From sequence record ON212266.1: a stretch of 64,000 bases of DNA. One strand, 5' to 3'. A program made the position numbers and the translations under genes. The notes beneath the pieces were generated by a model. It made no database searches and was not told the DNA's origin. It saw only the letters and a list, made by a program, of their open reading frames with translations. Source of the DNA: Enterobacter phage fGh-Ecl02. This document shows positions 43,391 to 48,458 of this stretch, piece after piece (position 1 is the stretch's first letter; every line of letters begins with the position of its first letter).

Positions 43391-43400
43391 GACAAAGAAT

Positions 43401-43811
43401 ATGAAACCTGTTATATGTGATTACTGTGGCCTCCCAGCCGAATTCGTCGGTGGTGATGTTCTCTACCCTCATCGCCCTGACCTCCGCAATCTGAAGTTCT
43501 GGGTGTGCACTCCATGTGATGCCCGTGTCGGTTGCCATGCCCATGGCGACGGCAGACAACCTTTGGGAAGGATGGCGAATGCCGCTCTCCGTGCTGCTAA
43601 GCAGGAAGCCCATAGATCGTTTGACCCATTGTGGAAAAGCGGAGAGAGGAGCAGGAGCGACGCTTACAGTTGGCTGGCGCATAAGCTGGGGATAAAGAAG
43701 CGTGAGTGTCATATTGGCTTGTTCGATATCGACATGTGCCGTAAAGTAGTTGTTGTCTGTCAACAATACGAGGTACATATCAATGTCAAAGGAAATACAA
43801 GAAGCGTTTGA
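43401..43811 (+). CDS. Zinc-finger-containing protein of the DUF3268-like phage family
   Basis: CDYCGLPAEFVGG..LYP + CTPCDARVGCHAHG + LGRMANAALRAAKQEAHRSFDPLW + HIGLFDIDMCRKV matches that family's signature. Confidence 0.55.
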   Translation: MKPVICDYCGLPAEFVGGDVLYPHRPDLRNLKFWVCTPCDARVGCHAHGDGRQPLGRMANAALRAAKQEAHRSFDPLWKSGERSRSDAYSWLAHKLGIKKRECHIGLFDIDMCRKVVVVCQQYEVHINVKGNTRSV

Positions 43812-44088
43812 GAATCTAACTCAGGCGCTCACCAACTGCAACCGTCTCAACTATTGCAACGACCCATTGCAAAAGCTGAAGTCCCTGGTAGAATCAGAAC
43901 TGGCTAAACTGGCCGAATACAACGCCATCCAAGAAGACGTGGTGTTCATGTCGGACACGGTCGTAGACACCCTTCCGCGCGAAGTGTACAATGTATTGGG
44001 TCGCATCGCAAAGGTGGGTTTCCGTGAACCACAAGACGCCAAACCCACCCCCGAAATTCTTACATCCATCGTTGACTCGTTTAAGTGA
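43783..44088 (+). CDS. Hypothetical protein (101 aa)
   Basis: ORF overlapping the previous stop. Confidence 0.4.
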   Translation: MSKEIQEAFENLTQALTNCNRLNYCNDPLQKLKSLVESELAKLAEYNAIQEDVVFMSDTVVDTLPREVYNVLGRIAKVGFREPQDAKPTPEILTSIVDSFK

Positions 44089-44095
44089 GACCACC

Positions 44096-44329
44096 ATGTC
44101 TAAAGAGATTATTTTTACCGGGGCGGCGCTTGACACCATGTATGCCCTGTACAATCGTGGTCCACTGAGCATTGGCGATATCCCGTCTAAGTCAGGTCTG
44201 GACTTCCTGTTGCGACATAAGCTGGTTGTGGCTGTGGTAGTCAGGGGTGAAACGCAATACGCCGGGTCGATGGCCATGGCTTCCCACTACAAACGTCAGA
44301 CATGGAAGGGCGCTTCCTCCAAATCCTGA
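44096..44329 (+). CDS. Hypothetical protein (77 aa)
   Basis: ORF immediately downstream of the previous gene. Confidence 0.4.
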   Translation: MSKEIIFTGAALDTMYALYNRGPLSIGDIPSKSGLDFLLRHKLVVAVVVRGETQYAGSMAMASHYKRQTWKGASSKS

Positions 44330-44434
44330 GTTTGTCAAAACCTTTTCAATATCAATAACGTCCAGCGTAAATGCTGGGCGTTTCAATTAGCAGTACATGG
44401 TATAATGGGACTGCTGACGAATACGAGGTGTATC

Positions 44435-44797
44435 ATGTCTGTGAAGATGAAAGGTGCTGAGTTCAAAACCTATTATCACGATGACCAATATTGGGTACAA
44501 GACGCCTGGCACGAAGATCACGTCATCAAAGTGAATGGCGAATATGTCGAAGATGTAATCGACGATGAGATCCCTAACGATGCTGATGTCGTGATCGAGT
44601 CTGGAGTTGTCTATATTCCGTCTCAAACTGATAGCGGTCGTGTTGAAAAGGAAGTGTCGCTTGTTACTCACTTCAAGAACTGGCGCAAGCAGAACAAATT
44701 CTCCTTCATCGTCGTGACGGTGGAGAAGGACAAGGTCGCCGATGTTCGCCAAGCCCTGCGGTCGATCCCTGGCGTTACTGAAGTCAAGGGCGGCTGA
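44435..44797 (+). CDS. Hypothetical protein (120 aa)
   Basis: SD GAGGTG, start context GTATCATG. Confidence 0.45.
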   Translation: MSVKMKGAEFKTYYHDDQYWVQDAWHEDHVIKVNGEYVEDVIDDEIPNDADVVIESGVVYIPSQTDSGRVEKEVSLVTHFKNWRKQNKFSFIVVTVEKDKVADVRQALRSIPGVTEVKGG

Positions 44798-44798
44798 T

Positions 44799-44969
44799 AT
44801 GGCCAAACCATTTGAACGTGTGGGCGTCGACAACCTCGACCGCCGCTTTAGCCCATCGGAAACGCTGATGAGTCAGATTGAACTCAATCGCGACTTCCTT
44901 GAATATATGCTGGTCAAGCCGGAAGGTGAGGCCGAAGACAACCCTGAAGAAGGCAATAACGATGATTGA
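44799..44969 (+). CDS. Small acidic protein (56 aa)
   Basis: ATG 1 nt after the previous stop. Its own stop overlaps the next start (ATGATTGA). Confidence 0.35.
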   Translation: MAKPFERVGVDNLDRRFSPSETLMSQIELNRDFLEYMLVKPEGEAEDNPEEGNNDD

Positions 44970-47163
44970 ATCATTAGAATTTAAGAATGCGGTTGCGACT
45001 GCTGCCCCGTCCAACCATGTAATCGTTGTAGACATTTCCGGCTCGATGTACCGTGCGCTCCCTGAAGTCCGTAAGCACCTGAAGGAGAACCTGCCTTCCT
45101 TGGTGAAGCCAGAAGACACTGTGAGTGTTCTATACTTCTCATCCAAAGGCGACTTTGGCACTGTGTTCGCTGGCCGTCAGATCAATGCAGCATCCGACCT
45201 GAGCGAAATCAACAATCTAATTGACCGCTTCCTGAAACCGTCTGGTTGCACTGGCTTTGTTGAGCCGTTGAAACTGGCGATGGACACTGCTCGTGGCCTG
45301 AAGAAGCCTGGCTATGTCAACAACCTGGCGTTCATGACTGACGGGTATGACAACTGCTGGCGTACCAACGAAATTCTACTGGTTGCTGAGACCCTGCCAT
45401 TTGCTTTCGATAACATTACATTTATCGAATACGGCTGGCACTGTAACCGTGAACTGCTGGCGCAGATGGCCGAACACTCTGGTGCTACTCACGTGTTTGC
45501 CGAAGGTCAGACCGAATACCAGACCGAACTGGAAAACGTGCTGAAGTCATCAGTACCGAAGGTGGTTGTTGATGTGCCTCTGCTATACACCCACGCTATC
45601 TATGTTGAAAACGGCGTAGCAACTGTGCTGGCGGTACAGCCGGATGAAGACCATCCTATCGGCCACGTGAGCATCCCTGAGAGCGTCACCAAGCTGTGGG
45701 TTGTAAACCCTAACATGATCGACCAGATGGATAGCCTGACGGAAATCCAGGCGGCATACGTGCTGGCGTTCTACGGTGTACACACTATGGACGCAGATCT
45801 GGTTTGGGCTGCGCTGAAGAAGACTGGCGACGTTCGCTTCATCAAACAGTACAGCAACTGCTTCACCAAGCAGGACTACTCCAACATCAAGAACGATCTG
45901 GTACAGGCGATTGTTGACGACCAGCTGCGTGGTGTTGACGGTATTGACTATGACCTGGTTCCGGCCGAAGACGCGACCACCGTCGTTGATGTGCTGACGT
46001 ACCTGGCTGAAGCTGGTGTGCCTGTTGCTACCAAGCATCCGATGTTCTCCTATAAGAGTATCGGGCGCGGTACTGTGCAGAAAACCGACGACACCGAAGA
46101 CAAGCTGGCAGAACAGATCGCGAATGCTCAGTCCAAAGAAGAGCGTAAAGCCCTGGCTCTCAAGCTGGCAGAACACGAAGAGTGGAACCCGACGTTCGAA
46201 CCTACCAACGACCTGGGTGTTGTGCCAATCAGCGATTTGGTCTATAACTCCGAGCGCCCGAACATCAGTGTGCGCACTATTCAGCATGGTACTGTGACTG
46301 TCCCTGAGTTCGCACAGAAGAAGTTTGGTCTGCCTGAAGAACTGGATACTTTCCAGTGGCGCAACTACACCATCGTCAAAGACGGTATCATTAACGTGAA
46401 GACTCTGCCGTTCAAGGCTGATATCGAAGTTGTACAGAAGCTGATCGAAATGGGTGTCCACGTGTTTGGTGGTCCGGAAGTGTTTGTCCTGAACCTGGAA
46501 AGCGTACCGCTGGTCAACCGCGCCATGGTCAAGAACATCAGTGCTGCTCAGTTCTTTGCGGATAATGTCCGTCTGGAAGCCCTGAAAGGCAAGCAGAAGG
46601 TGCTGAAGTTCTATCGAGACGCCCTGGTTGGTAAGGGTAACGCCAAAGGCCTGGCAGTACAGTACGGCGCTGAGGCGGCCGAGTTCCTGTCCTCCTACGG
46701 CATCCGCGATTACGGCTTCTCACCGAAGACTGAGACCAAAGAGTCTACCGACTTCTACATGAGCCGTGAGCTGAACGTTAAGATTGCCGGGGCGTCTTCC
46801 CTACCGAGCATCGCGACAGTACAGAAGAAGATTGCTGAGAACAAGAAACTCAATGCGGGTGACTTGTTCATCGCCAATGCGCTGAAGGAGTACGATGCAT
46901 TCGTGAAGTCTCCTATGATCACTGCCGTGCCTGAAGCCTTACAGAAACAGCTGATCGAAAACTGGATCGACGCTGCTGCCAAGGCGGCCATCACCGAAGT
47001 CCGTGCCCTGAACAAGACACTGTCTAAAGTGGTGTATGGTATCGTTGCTGGCCACGGCTGGTTCACCGACCTCGACCTGGAAGAGTCCACCATGGAAGTT
47101 GAAGTGGATGGCGTGAAGTACAAGGTCACTGCCGAACTGACAGAGAAAGAAATCAAAATCTAA
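44962..47163 (+). CDS. von Willebrand factor A (vWA) domain protein (733 aa)
   Basis: VVDISGSM...S...TDG reproduces the MIDAS DxSxS..T..D motif at the N-terminus, followed by a long C-terminal region. Strong terminator at 47169-47193. Confidence 0.65.
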   Translation: MIESLEFKNAVATAAPSNHVIVVDISGSMYRALPEVRKHLKENLPSLVKPEDTVSVLYFSSKGDFGTVFAGRQINAASDLSEINNLIDRFLKPSGCTGFVEPLKLAMDTARGLKKPGYVNNLAFMTDGYDNCWRTNEILLVAETLPFAFDNITFIEYGWHCNRELLAQMAEHSGATHVFAEGQTEYQTELENVLKSSVPKVVVDVPLLYTHAIYVENGVATVLAVQPDEDHPIGHVSIPESVTKLWVVNPNMIDQMDSLTEIQAAYVLAFYGVHTMDADLVWAALKKTGDVRFIKQYSNCFTKQDYSNIKNDLVQAIVDDQLRGVDGIDYDLVPAEDATTVVDVLTYLAEAGVPVATKHPMFSYKSIGRGTVQKTDDTEDKLAEQIANAQSKEERKALALKLAEHEEWNPTFEPTNDLGVVPISDLVYNSERPNISVRTIQHGTVTVPEFAQKKFGLPEELDTFQWRNYTIVKDGIINVKTLPFKADIEVVQKLIEMGVHVFGGPEVFVLNLESVPLVNRAMVKNISAAQFFADNVRLEALKGKQKVLKFYRDALVGKGNAKGLAVQYGAEAAEFLSSYGIRDYGFSPKTETKESTDFYMSRELNVKIAGASSLPSIATVQKKIAENKKLNAGDLFIANALKEYDAFVKSPMITAVPEALQKQLIENWIDAAAKAAITEVRALNKTLSKVVYGIVAGHGWFTDLDLEESTMEVEVDGVKYKVTAELTEKEIKI

Positions 47164-47168
47164 TCCAA

Positions 47169-47193
47169 CGGGCGGGGCAACCCGCCTTTCTTT
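47169..47193 (+). terminator. Rho-independent terminator after the vWA gene
   Basis: GGCGGG-GCAA-CCCGCC followed by TTTCTTT. Confidence 0.7.
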
Positions 47194-47205
47194 GGGAGAA
47201 GTAGC

Positions 47206-47529
47206 ATGAGCAGTAAACCAACATATGTTGAAGTCATGCGTCATCTGGCTCAGTACGCCACTGACAATCTGAATATGGATCTGTGGCGTGACGATGACAA
47301 GCGCAAATTGCTGGACGACGTGGCATCTCAGAACGAGGACGCCCTGGACAAGCTGGCTGGCCTCCGTACCAAGAAAGACCTCGGTGGTGACGAACTGGAT
47401 GCCATCGAAATCGTAATGGAACTAGAAGAAGAGTTTCAGGTCGAAATCGACGACGGGTGGCTAGGTAGTAAAGGCGATGACCCGACCATGGGTGAACTCG
47501 CTGAACTCGTGGTTGCCCTGCGCAAATAA
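47206..47529 (+). CDS. Acyl-carrier-protein-like protein with Glu in place of the phosphopantetheinyl-Ser
   Basis: DLGGDELDAIEIVMELEEEFQVEI versus E. coli ACP [24 protein letters not shown]. Extra 50-aa N-terminal extension. Terminator at 47533-47561. Confidence 0.6.
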   Translation: MSSKPTYVEVMRHLAQYATDNLNMDLWRDDDKRKLLDDVASQNEDALDKLAGLRTKKDLGGDELDAIEIVMELEEEFQVEIDDGWLGSKGDDPTMGELAELVVALRK

Positions 47530-47532
47530 CAG

Positions 47533-47561
47533 AAGTCCCCAACAAACGTTGGGGATTTTTA
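47533..47561 (+). terminator. Rho-independent terminator after the ACP-like gene
   Basis: TCCCCAAC-AAAC-GTTGGGGA followed by TTTTTAC. Confidence 0.7.
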
Positions 47562-47951: not shown

Positions 47952-48458
47952 ATGACCGATCAACAAATTCAAGATTTATTTTACCTCGTCCATGATAAGT
48001 CCCACATCATGCGCCCCGGTACTGTTTCCCCTGCCGTCCGTGATCTGGTGCAAGAATTGCGCGAACCGCAGACGACCACACTTTATCGCGGGCTGCCTAA
48101 AGAGGACGTTGCGCGTTTAGAGATGATGTTTGAACGAGGCGACATGTTCCAGACATGGGATTCTTGTCTTAGCTTCAGTGAACTGAAGCATGTGGCCAAA
48201 AAATTTTCTAAATCGTACGGGACCAAAGCTGTTGCCCGCATTTGTTACAAACATCGAATCGGACTCCCGGAAGGGCTTAACGTCTATGGTTCTCTAGAAA
48301 AATTTGTGAACAAAGGCGATGAATCAGAAATGGATATGCTGGACTTGGCGTCCATGGAGAAAGAATGGATATTCTGCCAGCCTCGCGTCATACCAGTTTC
48401 AAGAAAAATGGCAACAGACGGGACGATGGTTTTTACCGTATCACTTGTTACCCTATAA
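47952..48458 (+). CDS. Hypothetical protein (168 aa)
   Basis: ORF after a hairpin cassette (47907-47930). Confidence 0.45.
   Translation: MTDQQIQDLFYLVHDKSHIMRPGTVSPAVRDLVQELREPQTTTLYRGLPKEDVARLEMMFERGDMFQTWDSCLSFSELKHVAKKFSKSYGTKAVARICYKHRIGLPEGLNVYGSLEKFVNKGDESEMDMLDLASMEKEWIFCQPRVIPVSRKMATDGTMVFTVSLVTL

Follow-up and report, generated by a model that had tools for sequence, protein, structure and literature searches.

An acyl carrier protein-like protein of Ackermannviridae phages with glutamate or aspartate at the phosphopantetheine attachment site

What can an acyl carrier protein (ACP) contribute to a phage once the serine that accepts phosphopantetheine is gone? The question is raised by a gene of Enterobacter phage fGh-Ecl02 (sequence record ON212266.1), which lies in the 64,000-nucleotide stretch of DNA analysed here (the window). 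The window is part of an Ackermannviridae genome and shares 95-97% identity over 24 kb with the Escherichia phages AV101, A221 and vB_EcoM-ZQ1. GenBank and RefSeq name the gene either "acyl carrier protein" or "hypothetical protein". An original prediction, made from the letters of the sequence, had described its product as ACP-like with Glu replacing the attachment Ser. Here we ask how far this description holds, how general the replacement is, and what the protein may do. The gene is:

47206..47529, + strand: ACP-like open reading frame (ORF), ATG start, 107 codons, stop included; PHROG 4154.

The ACP-like nature of the protein was upheld by the Pfam, PHROG and profile-profile comparisons as well as by the AlphaFold2 model and Foldseek. 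Pfam PF00550 (PP-binding) matched residues 58-101 with 26.0 bits against a gathering score of 20.8 (E 1.1e-5), the match being restricted to profile positions 26-66, and PHROG 4154 ("acyl carrier protein") aligned from residue 1 to 107 onto profile positions 1-108 of 108 (E 2.4e-57). A profile built from 30 family members matched a canonical-ACP profile with a probability of 97.7% (E 1.3e-12), and the best matches of the protein among PDB sequences were fatty-acid-synthase (FAS)-type ACPs throughout. The NCBIfam equivalog TIGR00517 scored 34.6 bits against a cut-off of 70.45, and the remaining ACP equivalogs stayed far under their cut-offs. The AlphaFold2 model, computed from the family alignment, comprises six helices (pLDDT 77, pTM 0.68), and an independent BFVD model of the homologue from Salmonella phage ViI (E1XTD1, 63% identity) agrees with it at TM 0.88-0.90. 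A predicted structure lacking the four-helix carrier-protein fold would have contradicted the assignment; AlphaFold2 and Foldseek both gave that fold, and from these models the protein is predicted to be an ACP by fold.

The counterpart of the attachment motif lies in a stretch in which residues 57-83 align to residues 31-57 of E. coli AcpP with no gaps and 63% identity over 27 residues, and Glu63 stands opposite Ser36:

47377..47400, + strand: DLGGDELD, counterpart of the attachment motif, residues 58-65; the GAA codon of Glu63 is at 47392-47394.

This gapless alignment and the conservation within the family both confirm that the attachment Ser has been replaced. A sequencing slip is not the explanation, since no Ser codon is fewer than two substitutions away from Glu and four relatives compared at codon level share this GAA. 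Among 30 family representatives (55-97% identity) position 63 is Glu in 28 and Asp in two, the surrounding residues L59, G60, G61, D62, L64 and D65 are invariant, and 29 positions are invariant in total. Asp is found at the attachment position in Kuttervirus-type contigs, and distant full-length relatives (30-48% identity, from an exhaustive profile search) carry Glu or Asp without exception. We also looked in the family alignment for another Ser that could take over the attachment, and Ser2, Ser3, Ser41 and Ser88 all vary; no nearby in-frame Ser that could have overturned the prediction is therefore conserved. Thr94 is the sole invariant hydroxyl residue and lies within a DDPT motif ahead of helix IV. 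The loss of the Ser together with the lack of a conserved alternative supports the earlier statement that the protein should not be open to phosphopantetheinylation, as far as the canonical route is concerned.

The gene is nonetheless no relic by its pattern of substitution. Its ratio of nonsynonymous to synonymous substitutions (dN/dS) against four relatives is 0.02-0.13, which means strong purifying selection and, because of these values, a clearly functional gene. By tblastn it was present in 271 phage records, 270 of them at coverage of at least 80%, nearly all being phages of 150-160 kb that infect Salmonella, Klebsiella, Escherichia, Dickeya, Shigella and Serratia. The protein has three features of Ser-less, cofactor-independent scaffolds (ACP fold, replaced Ser and purifying selection), and the alignments indicate that the phosphopantetheine carrier function has been permanently lost in the Ackermannviridae family. 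The GenBank label "acyl carrier protein" accordingly appears functionally wrong for this gene, which should not be filed as a functional acyl carrier protein because it lacks the defining Ser and scores below the NCBIfam equivalog cut-offs.

The part of the protein that resembles AcpP is the part with which AcpP meets its partners:

47392..47436, + strand: helix II ("recognition helix"), residues 63-77 (family alignment, AlphaFold2, AcpP alignment).

The residues of AcpP that contact partner enzymes in ACP-enzyme complexes, which we take to be D35, L37, D38, V40, E41, M44, E47, E48 and D56, have as counterparts D62, L64, D65, I67, E68, M71, E74, E75 and D83, all invariant or nearly so in the family, and outside residues 57-83 no similarity to E. 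coli AcpP was detectable. Judged from sequence, nearly every residue of the AcpP docking surface, which comprises helix II and the beginning of helix III, is kept. Because the contact positions are conserved, the rest of the protein lacks similarity to AcpP and the Ser is gone, the docking face seems to have been retained while the attachment point was removed, with a fixed carboxylate predicted where the phosphopantetheine phosphate would start.

Around this conserved core the protein differs from AcpP in two places. A 50-residue N-terminal extension had been proposed, and this part of the description did not survive, since Glu63 is merely 27 residues farther from the N-terminus than Ser36 of AcpP and therefore at most about 27 extra residues can be accommodated. 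The elements outside the motif and helix II are:

47224..47268, + strand: amphipathic helix, residues 7-21, with Y7, V10, M11, L14, Y17 and A18 and then N21 and L22 conserved (AlphaFold2, invariant columns, MAFFT, Foldseek).
47275..47358, + strand: variable charged helical insertion in the loop between helices I and II, residues 24-51, with helices at 30-40 and 44-51 (pLDDT, indels).
47452..47487, + strand: remodelled helix III and loop 2, residues 83-94, with invariant D83, W85, G87 and D91-D92-P93-T94.
47488..47523, + strand: helix IV, residues 95-106 (AlphaFold2).

The remodelled helix III/loop 2 region is four residues longer than its AcpP counterpart. For helix I the methods disagree: local alignments by hhalign and phmmer run contiguously, at low confidence, into residues 30-45, in conflict with the global MAFFT alignment with short relatives, in which ACP helix I corresponds to residues 7-22 (V10, L14, Y17, A18 and L22 align with I3, V7, I10, I11 and L15 of AcpP) and a gap falls at about 24-50. 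Residues 26-45 are the most variable part of the protein, with the only indels of the family and the lowest pLDDT (63-70), and the insertion (residues 24-51) is missing from the short Glu-type relatives P0053, P0055 and P0057. In Foldseek, whole-query alignments reached target TM-scores of 0.65-0.74; they had 98-107 columns against ACPs only 76-85 residues long, which implies a gap exceeding 20 residues, and contiguous alignments of 78-79 columns gave 0.58-0.60 at 6 Å root-mean-square deviation, no better than 57-column local alignments of helices II-IV. Residues 7-21 are thus the probable ACP helix I and about 27 residues (24-51) a probable helical insertion in loop 1, because residues 7-22 are conserved and 26-45 variable and because the whole-query TM-scores exceed the contiguous and local ones; this placement is provisional, resting on TM-scores and alignment lengths where the sequence methods conflict.

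The replacement of the Ser extends beyond this family. In phage-like contigs with genes for HNH proteins, ThyX, a methyltransferase and a nucleoside deoxyribosyltransferase there are short proteins that closely resemble AcpP and carry DLG[GA]DELD (P0057, P0055, P0303), and because these contigs are unrelated, the same Ser-to-Glu change in them suggests that phages have repeatedly kept the AcpP surface while disabling the attachment site. Degenerate DNA patterns encoding DLG[GA]D-x-LDx[IVM]E were used to search IMG/VR. When x was Glu or Asp, 56 loci were obtained: 16 on Ackermannviridae-sized contigs, 39 other genuine ACP-like ORFs, which include a marine family of 71-74 aa and a family of 79 aa, and one spurious match (L120); each of the two Ser patterns gave at least 120 loci. 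With x unrestricted, the first 80 matches comprised 67 with Ser, eight with Glu or Asp, two other genuine ones (Pro, Leu) and three spurious ones, so that the Ser-less share is about 13% of the 77 genuine motif-bearing ACP-likes (67 of 77 keep the Ser in this unbiased sample); the Ser count is likely inflated by host acpP genes on prophage-flanking DNA. The attachment site varies in the marine families (E/D/P and D/L), in contrast to the strictly acidic site of the Ackermannviridae family. We also considered a bacterial origin of the short Glu-type relatives and rejected it: a scan with P0053 over one genome per species retrieved canonical AcpP genes only (74 with Ser and no other residue), the sole Glu being that of the control locus of phage MK-13. 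A scan of viral contigs with P0042 yielded one marginal locus at a contig end. No common neighbour was found for the other viral Glu/Asp-type ACP-likes, which stood beside a lysozyme-like gene, a radical-SAM/methyltransferase/glycosyltransferase group or small ORFs.

Several of these loci deserve separate mention. The marine 71-74-aa family (MEKVVKAIAEHLDVD...DLGAD[E/D/P]FD) is represented by L101, L103, L105, L109, L112, L113, L119, L121, L122 and others as well as L400; at L101, the one marine locus with its neighbours scanned, one neighbour is lysozyme-like and two others have no Pfam match. On IMG/VR contig 3300032105_000035 (L107, 6053-9092) an Asp-type ACP-like is located between a radical-SAM/SPASM enzyme, an FkbM-type methyltransferase and a GT61 glycosyltransferase, an enzyme-rich context unlike that of the other Ser-less cases. 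Two related proteins of Vibrio phages 277E43-1 (L090, 3980-4513) and P018-4 (L091, 3989-4549) are fusions in which an N-terminal ACP-like domain precedes a C-terminal one of about 100 aa; the site holds Asn in one (NLGFDNLD) and Ser in the other (DLRMDSLD). Beyond the window, many bacterial or metagenomic ACP-likes with Glu or Asp at the site (P0099, P0102, P0116, P0119, P0122, P0149, P0168, P0181, P0194, P0271 and P0076) have an N-terminal signal peptide or lipoprotein box; to judge by these signals they look exported and could never meet a phosphopantetheinyl transferase (PPTase). Their frequency is overstated by a search profile that favours Glu at the Ser column, and we know of no description of exported ACP-fold proteins with Glu or Asp at this site. 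In Streptomyces bacillaris, P0274 (L094/L095, 6001-6372) is AcpP-like with DLGADELD and an N-terminal hydrophobic extension, and its gene stands alone between an EF-Tu paralogue and an extracytoplasmic function (ECF) sigma factor, outside any fab or biosynthetic cluster.

The alignments and the predicted fold hence uphold three elements of the original prediction, namely the ACP fold, the acidic residue in place of Ser and the lack of an alternative Ser, and substitute a loop-1 insertion of about 27 residues for the long extension. What is new here is that the Ser-to-acid change, as read from the motifs, recurs widely in other phage ACP-likes and in apparently exported bacterial ones. The Ackermannviridae gene would be one example of a broader, apparently undescribed viral class of Ser-less ACP-likes; the literature on phage ACP-likes yielded annotation tables and one proteome only, with no functional study found and none noting the missing Ser.

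The reading that we put forward, tentatively, is that the protein is a cytoplasmic, cofactor-independent look-alike of AcpP that docks on a partner, most likely a host AcpP client, and we infer that it acts by binding and not by carrying. Helix II would dock onto the basic AcpP-binding patch of the partner protein, the carboxylate of Glu63 would take the place of the phosphopantetheine phosphate, and the look-alike could not be loaded, unloaded or turned over. A carboxylate at position 63 could be read as "holo-like" because an Arg of the partner contacts the phosphopantetheine phosphate in ACP-Isd11 complexes (PMC8547962). The partner would be a low-abundance AcpP client of the host that is occupied or sequestered during infection, with tight binding to such a low-copy client aided by the inserted hairpin and the Trp/DDPT surface, and candidates are MukB, which accepts unmodified AcpP, and AcpS, which acts on apo-AcpP. 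Unmodified ACP is the natural ligand of AcpS, the active site of which receives Ser36. SpoT is a less likely target, because the unmodifiable AcpP mutant S36T reportedly fails to bind it. MukB comes into consideration because apo- and holo-AcpP stimulate it equally (PMC8602292) and because phages attack MukBEF, as T7 gp5.9 does (PMC7617805). A bolder extension, namely that acid-substituted Ser-less AcpP look-alikes are a widespread phage class for host takeover or counter-defence, each jamming one low-copy AcpP client, seems to us unlikely as it stands. On AcpS such a look-alike would be a dead-end substrate analogue, holding a Glu where Ser36 would attack coenzyme A, and apo-AcpP would build up and lipid synthesis would be arrested; a second client open to jamming would be MukBEF, whose binding of AcpP is cofactor-independent and whose ATPase requires it. 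Among culturable coliphages, the Ackermannviridae protein would offer the first tractable case of such a class.

A number of points weigh against the look-alike reading. AcpP is present at about 100 µM (PMC8602292), an abundance that makes competition across its partners implausible unless the phage protein is expressed at very high levels or binds much more tightly. In FAS-type ACPs no part is better conserved than helix II, so that its retention is partly a property of the family at large and is no proof of mimicry. In other viral Ser-less families, whose helix II is less AcpP-like, the site is not always acidic (Pro in L400, Leu in L401, Asn in Vibrio phage 277E43-1), for which reason an acid at the position where helix II begins could simply serve to stabilise that helix. 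Conservation of the inserted hairpin and of the Trp/DDPT region equals that of helix II, and these parts may specify a partner that is not an AcpP client. Finally, the AlphaFold2 model is of only moderate confidence (pLDDT 77) and was judged by its scores rather than its coordinates.

The alternatives involve the neighbourhood of the gene, of which two products are relevant:

44959..47163, + strand: vWA protein of 734 aa, N-terminal vWA domain with a complete metal-ion-dependent adhesion site (MIDAS; DISGS...T...TDG), same frame, 42 nt upstream of the ACP-like gene.
47952..48458, + strand: Mod/Alt-like ADP-ribosyltransferase of 168 aa, two genes downstream of the ACP-like gene.

The vWA protein belongs to PHROG 2426, a family found in 503 phage records from Ackermannviridae, several Straboviridae genera (49% identity) and Bacillus and Rhizobium phages; homologues are labelled tail or minor tail protein in some records, with no supporting evidence seen. 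The order of a 58-70-aa ORF, the vWA gene (734-739 aa), the ACP-like gene and a 78-93-aa ORF is kept in metagenomic relatives whose ACP-like proteins are 30-48% identical, all of them syntenic Ackermannviridae-like genomes. Downstream, the ACP-like gene is followed by a 79-aa ORF, the ADP-ribosyltransferase gene and then small ORFs without assigned function. The 47952-48458 product matches the C-terminal part of PHROG 832 ("RNA polymerase ADP-ribosylase"), and the homologue in L086 matches Pfam Mod_ADP_RT. PPTase, lipid or polyketide genes were found neither within about 3 kb nor in the 20-kb annotated region of MK-13. In MK-13 (L001, 4176-7998) and in L083 (2987-5502) genes for ribose-phosphate pyrophosphokinase and nicotinamide phosphoribosyltransferase (NAD salvage) are situated just upstream of the vWA gene; in the window at about 43400-44900 the ORF list holds no ORFs of that size, and the phage appears to lack these genes there.

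The ACP-like gene itself is bracketed by two GC-rich hairpins:

47170..47187, + strand: GC-rich hairpin with a trailing TTCTTT, directly behind the vWA gene and directly before the ribosome-binding site of the ACP-like gene.
47194..47201, + strand: Shine-Dalgarno-like GGGAGAAG, 4 nt ahead of the ATG, read off the sequence.
47536..47555, strand not assigned: hairpin TCCCCAAC/GTTGGGGA followed by TTTTTAC, terminator-like, closing the ACP-like gene after its stop codon.

Phage MK-13, with an identical intergenic translation, shares the first hairpin, which carries a T-rich tail and stops 6 nt short of the ribosome-binding site; for this reason expression of the gene may depend on read-through or processing at 47170-47187. 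A T4-type late promoter (TATAAATA) was sought near the gene and none was found, and sigma-70-like promoter matches near it were at chance level. The gene is located among small and early-type genes, and from this context we infer early-type expression. In the proteome of a related phage preparation the ACP-like protein was represented by one spectrum, as was the vWA protein, and structural proteins by hundreds; the ACP-like protein is therefore expressed, yet it is no significant virion component and is non-structural.

Could the partner be a phage protein instead? The ACP-like protein may be an adaptor or subunit, namely a ligand of the adjoining vWA protein in which Glu63 or Asp63 completes the metal coordination of the MIDAS as the ligands of integrins do. 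The two genes are 42 nt apart on one strand in an order that persists down to 30-48% identity, complete MIDAS sites bind exposed Glu or Asp, the strict Glu/Asp of the Ackermannviridae family suits a metal ligand, and both proteins reached the same trace level in the one proteome. Against this, gene order is conserved genome-wide in these phages, so that adjacency weighs little, and the vWA family (503 records) extends well past the ACP-like protein (271). No ACP-like gene adjoins the vWA gene in the three non-Ackermannviridae phages that were examined (the Straboviridae PMBT1 and Miller, and a Bacillus phage), and no vWA gene was found near the short Glu-type ACP-likes in unrelated phage-like contigs. 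As an obligate partner the vWA protein was rejected, since many of the 503 records lack an adjoining ACP-like gene; a functional link is possible, not obligate, and the vWA protein is the weaker candidate partner compared with a host AcpP client. We give the ligand explanation a low probability.

Less probable still is a generic acidic protein on an ACP scaffold (a DNA mimic, an anti-restriction factor or a divalent-cation buffer), with the acid at position 63 selected for helix II stability or charge only. The protein is certainly acidic (isoelectric point 4.26, 27 Asp and Glu against 13 Lys and Arg, net charge -7 in residues 53-80), the site varies among E, D, P, L and N across other viral Ser-less families, and acidic mimics exist in phages, T7 gp5.9 being an example (PMC7617805); a relationship in fold or sequence to the known DNA mimics Ocr, ArdA and gp5.9 was not observed. 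That the protein is still a carrier by non-canonical attachment, through another residue or through another group on Glu63 or Asp63, e.g., one derived from ADP-ribose by the Mod/Alt-like enzyme, we consider very improbable. Carrier proteins with non-pantetheine groups are known from citrate lyase and malonate decarboxylase, and the ADP-ribosyltransferase gene at 47952-48458 is close by, but T4-type Alt/Mod enzymes modify Arg, in L083 and L085 the precomputed Pfam matches include no Mod-type ADP-ribosyltransferase close to the ACP-like gene, no acyl-transfer, ligase or PPTase gene is nearby, and no alternative Ser is conserved. The least probable explanation is that a phage ACP that once worked is now decaying and has no function: a pseudogene-like relic would be expected to have lost the catalytic Ser, but the dN/dS values effectively refute this explanation, 29 positions are invariant, and the full-length ORF is maintained in 270 of the 271 phage records and in divergent relatives from metagenomes. 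The probability that is left falls to explanations outside those listed here.

Should the look-alike reading be true, it would have consequences beyond this locus. AcpP is the most connected and among the most abundant proteins of E. coli, essential for lipid synthesis and, independently of the cofactor, for MukBEF. A phage copy of its docking helix that cannot be loaded would represent a new type of protein-mimic effector, and the look-alike would be a ready-made probe or inhibitor lead for the AcpP client that it binds. Hundreds of phage records in GenBank and RefSeq name the gene "acyl carrier protein", and metagenomic surveys count viral ACP genes as auxiliary to lipid metabolism, an inference that appears wrong for the Ackermannviridae family and for roughly one eighth of the motif-bearing viral ACP-likes sampled. 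Since Ackermannviridae (CBA120, Vi01, LIMEstone and AV101 types) serve in biocontrol and therapy, their conserved host-interaction genes are worth knowing.

Compared with bacterial AcpP (E. coli 1T8K and 1L0H, B. subtilis 1HY8, T. maritima 6LVT), the phage protein differs by Glu or Asp in place of the phosphopantetheine Ser, by the loop-1 insertion of about 27 residues, by the rebuilt loop 2/helix III (W85, DDPT), by a score under the NCBIfam equivalog cut-off (34.6 against 70.45 bits) and by the lack of a fab/pls gene context. Salmonella phage ViI E1XTD1 (PHROG 4154) is a member of the same protein family. Among other phage "acyl carrier proteins" (PHROG 5934, the marine 71-74-aa family and CAH9013490 of Vibrio phage 277E43-1) some families are also Ser-less and carry E, D, P, L or N, but the loop-1 insertion and the W/DDPT motif are missing from these families, and in some of them helix II resembles that of AcpP less. 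A resemblance is seen with the mitochondrial ACP (mACP) of Plasmodium falciparum, in which the Ser is replaced by Phe113 and which binds Isd11-Nfs1 without the prosthetic group (eLife 2021, PMC8547962). Like the phage protein it keeps the ACP fold after loss of the attachment Ser, and it is a purely protein-binding module whose replacing residue is part of the interface (PMC8547962). Unlike the phage protein, mACP is eukaryotic and organellar, its replacing residue is hydrophobic and it binds an LYR protein, a type for which no gene was noticed near the phage gene; mACP has no specific sequence relationship to the phage family, and Ser-less mACP homologues have been reported essentially only from Apicomplexa and chromerids (PMC8547962). 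T7 gp5.9, which acts against MukBEF and RecBCD, and Ocr offer a functional analogy only, as small acidic phage proteins that occupy a host site for a polyanionic ligand (PMC7617805). Whereas gp5.9 and Ocr are DNA mimics with unrelated folds, the Ackermannviridae protein would, by this analogy, mimic a host protein, AcpP.
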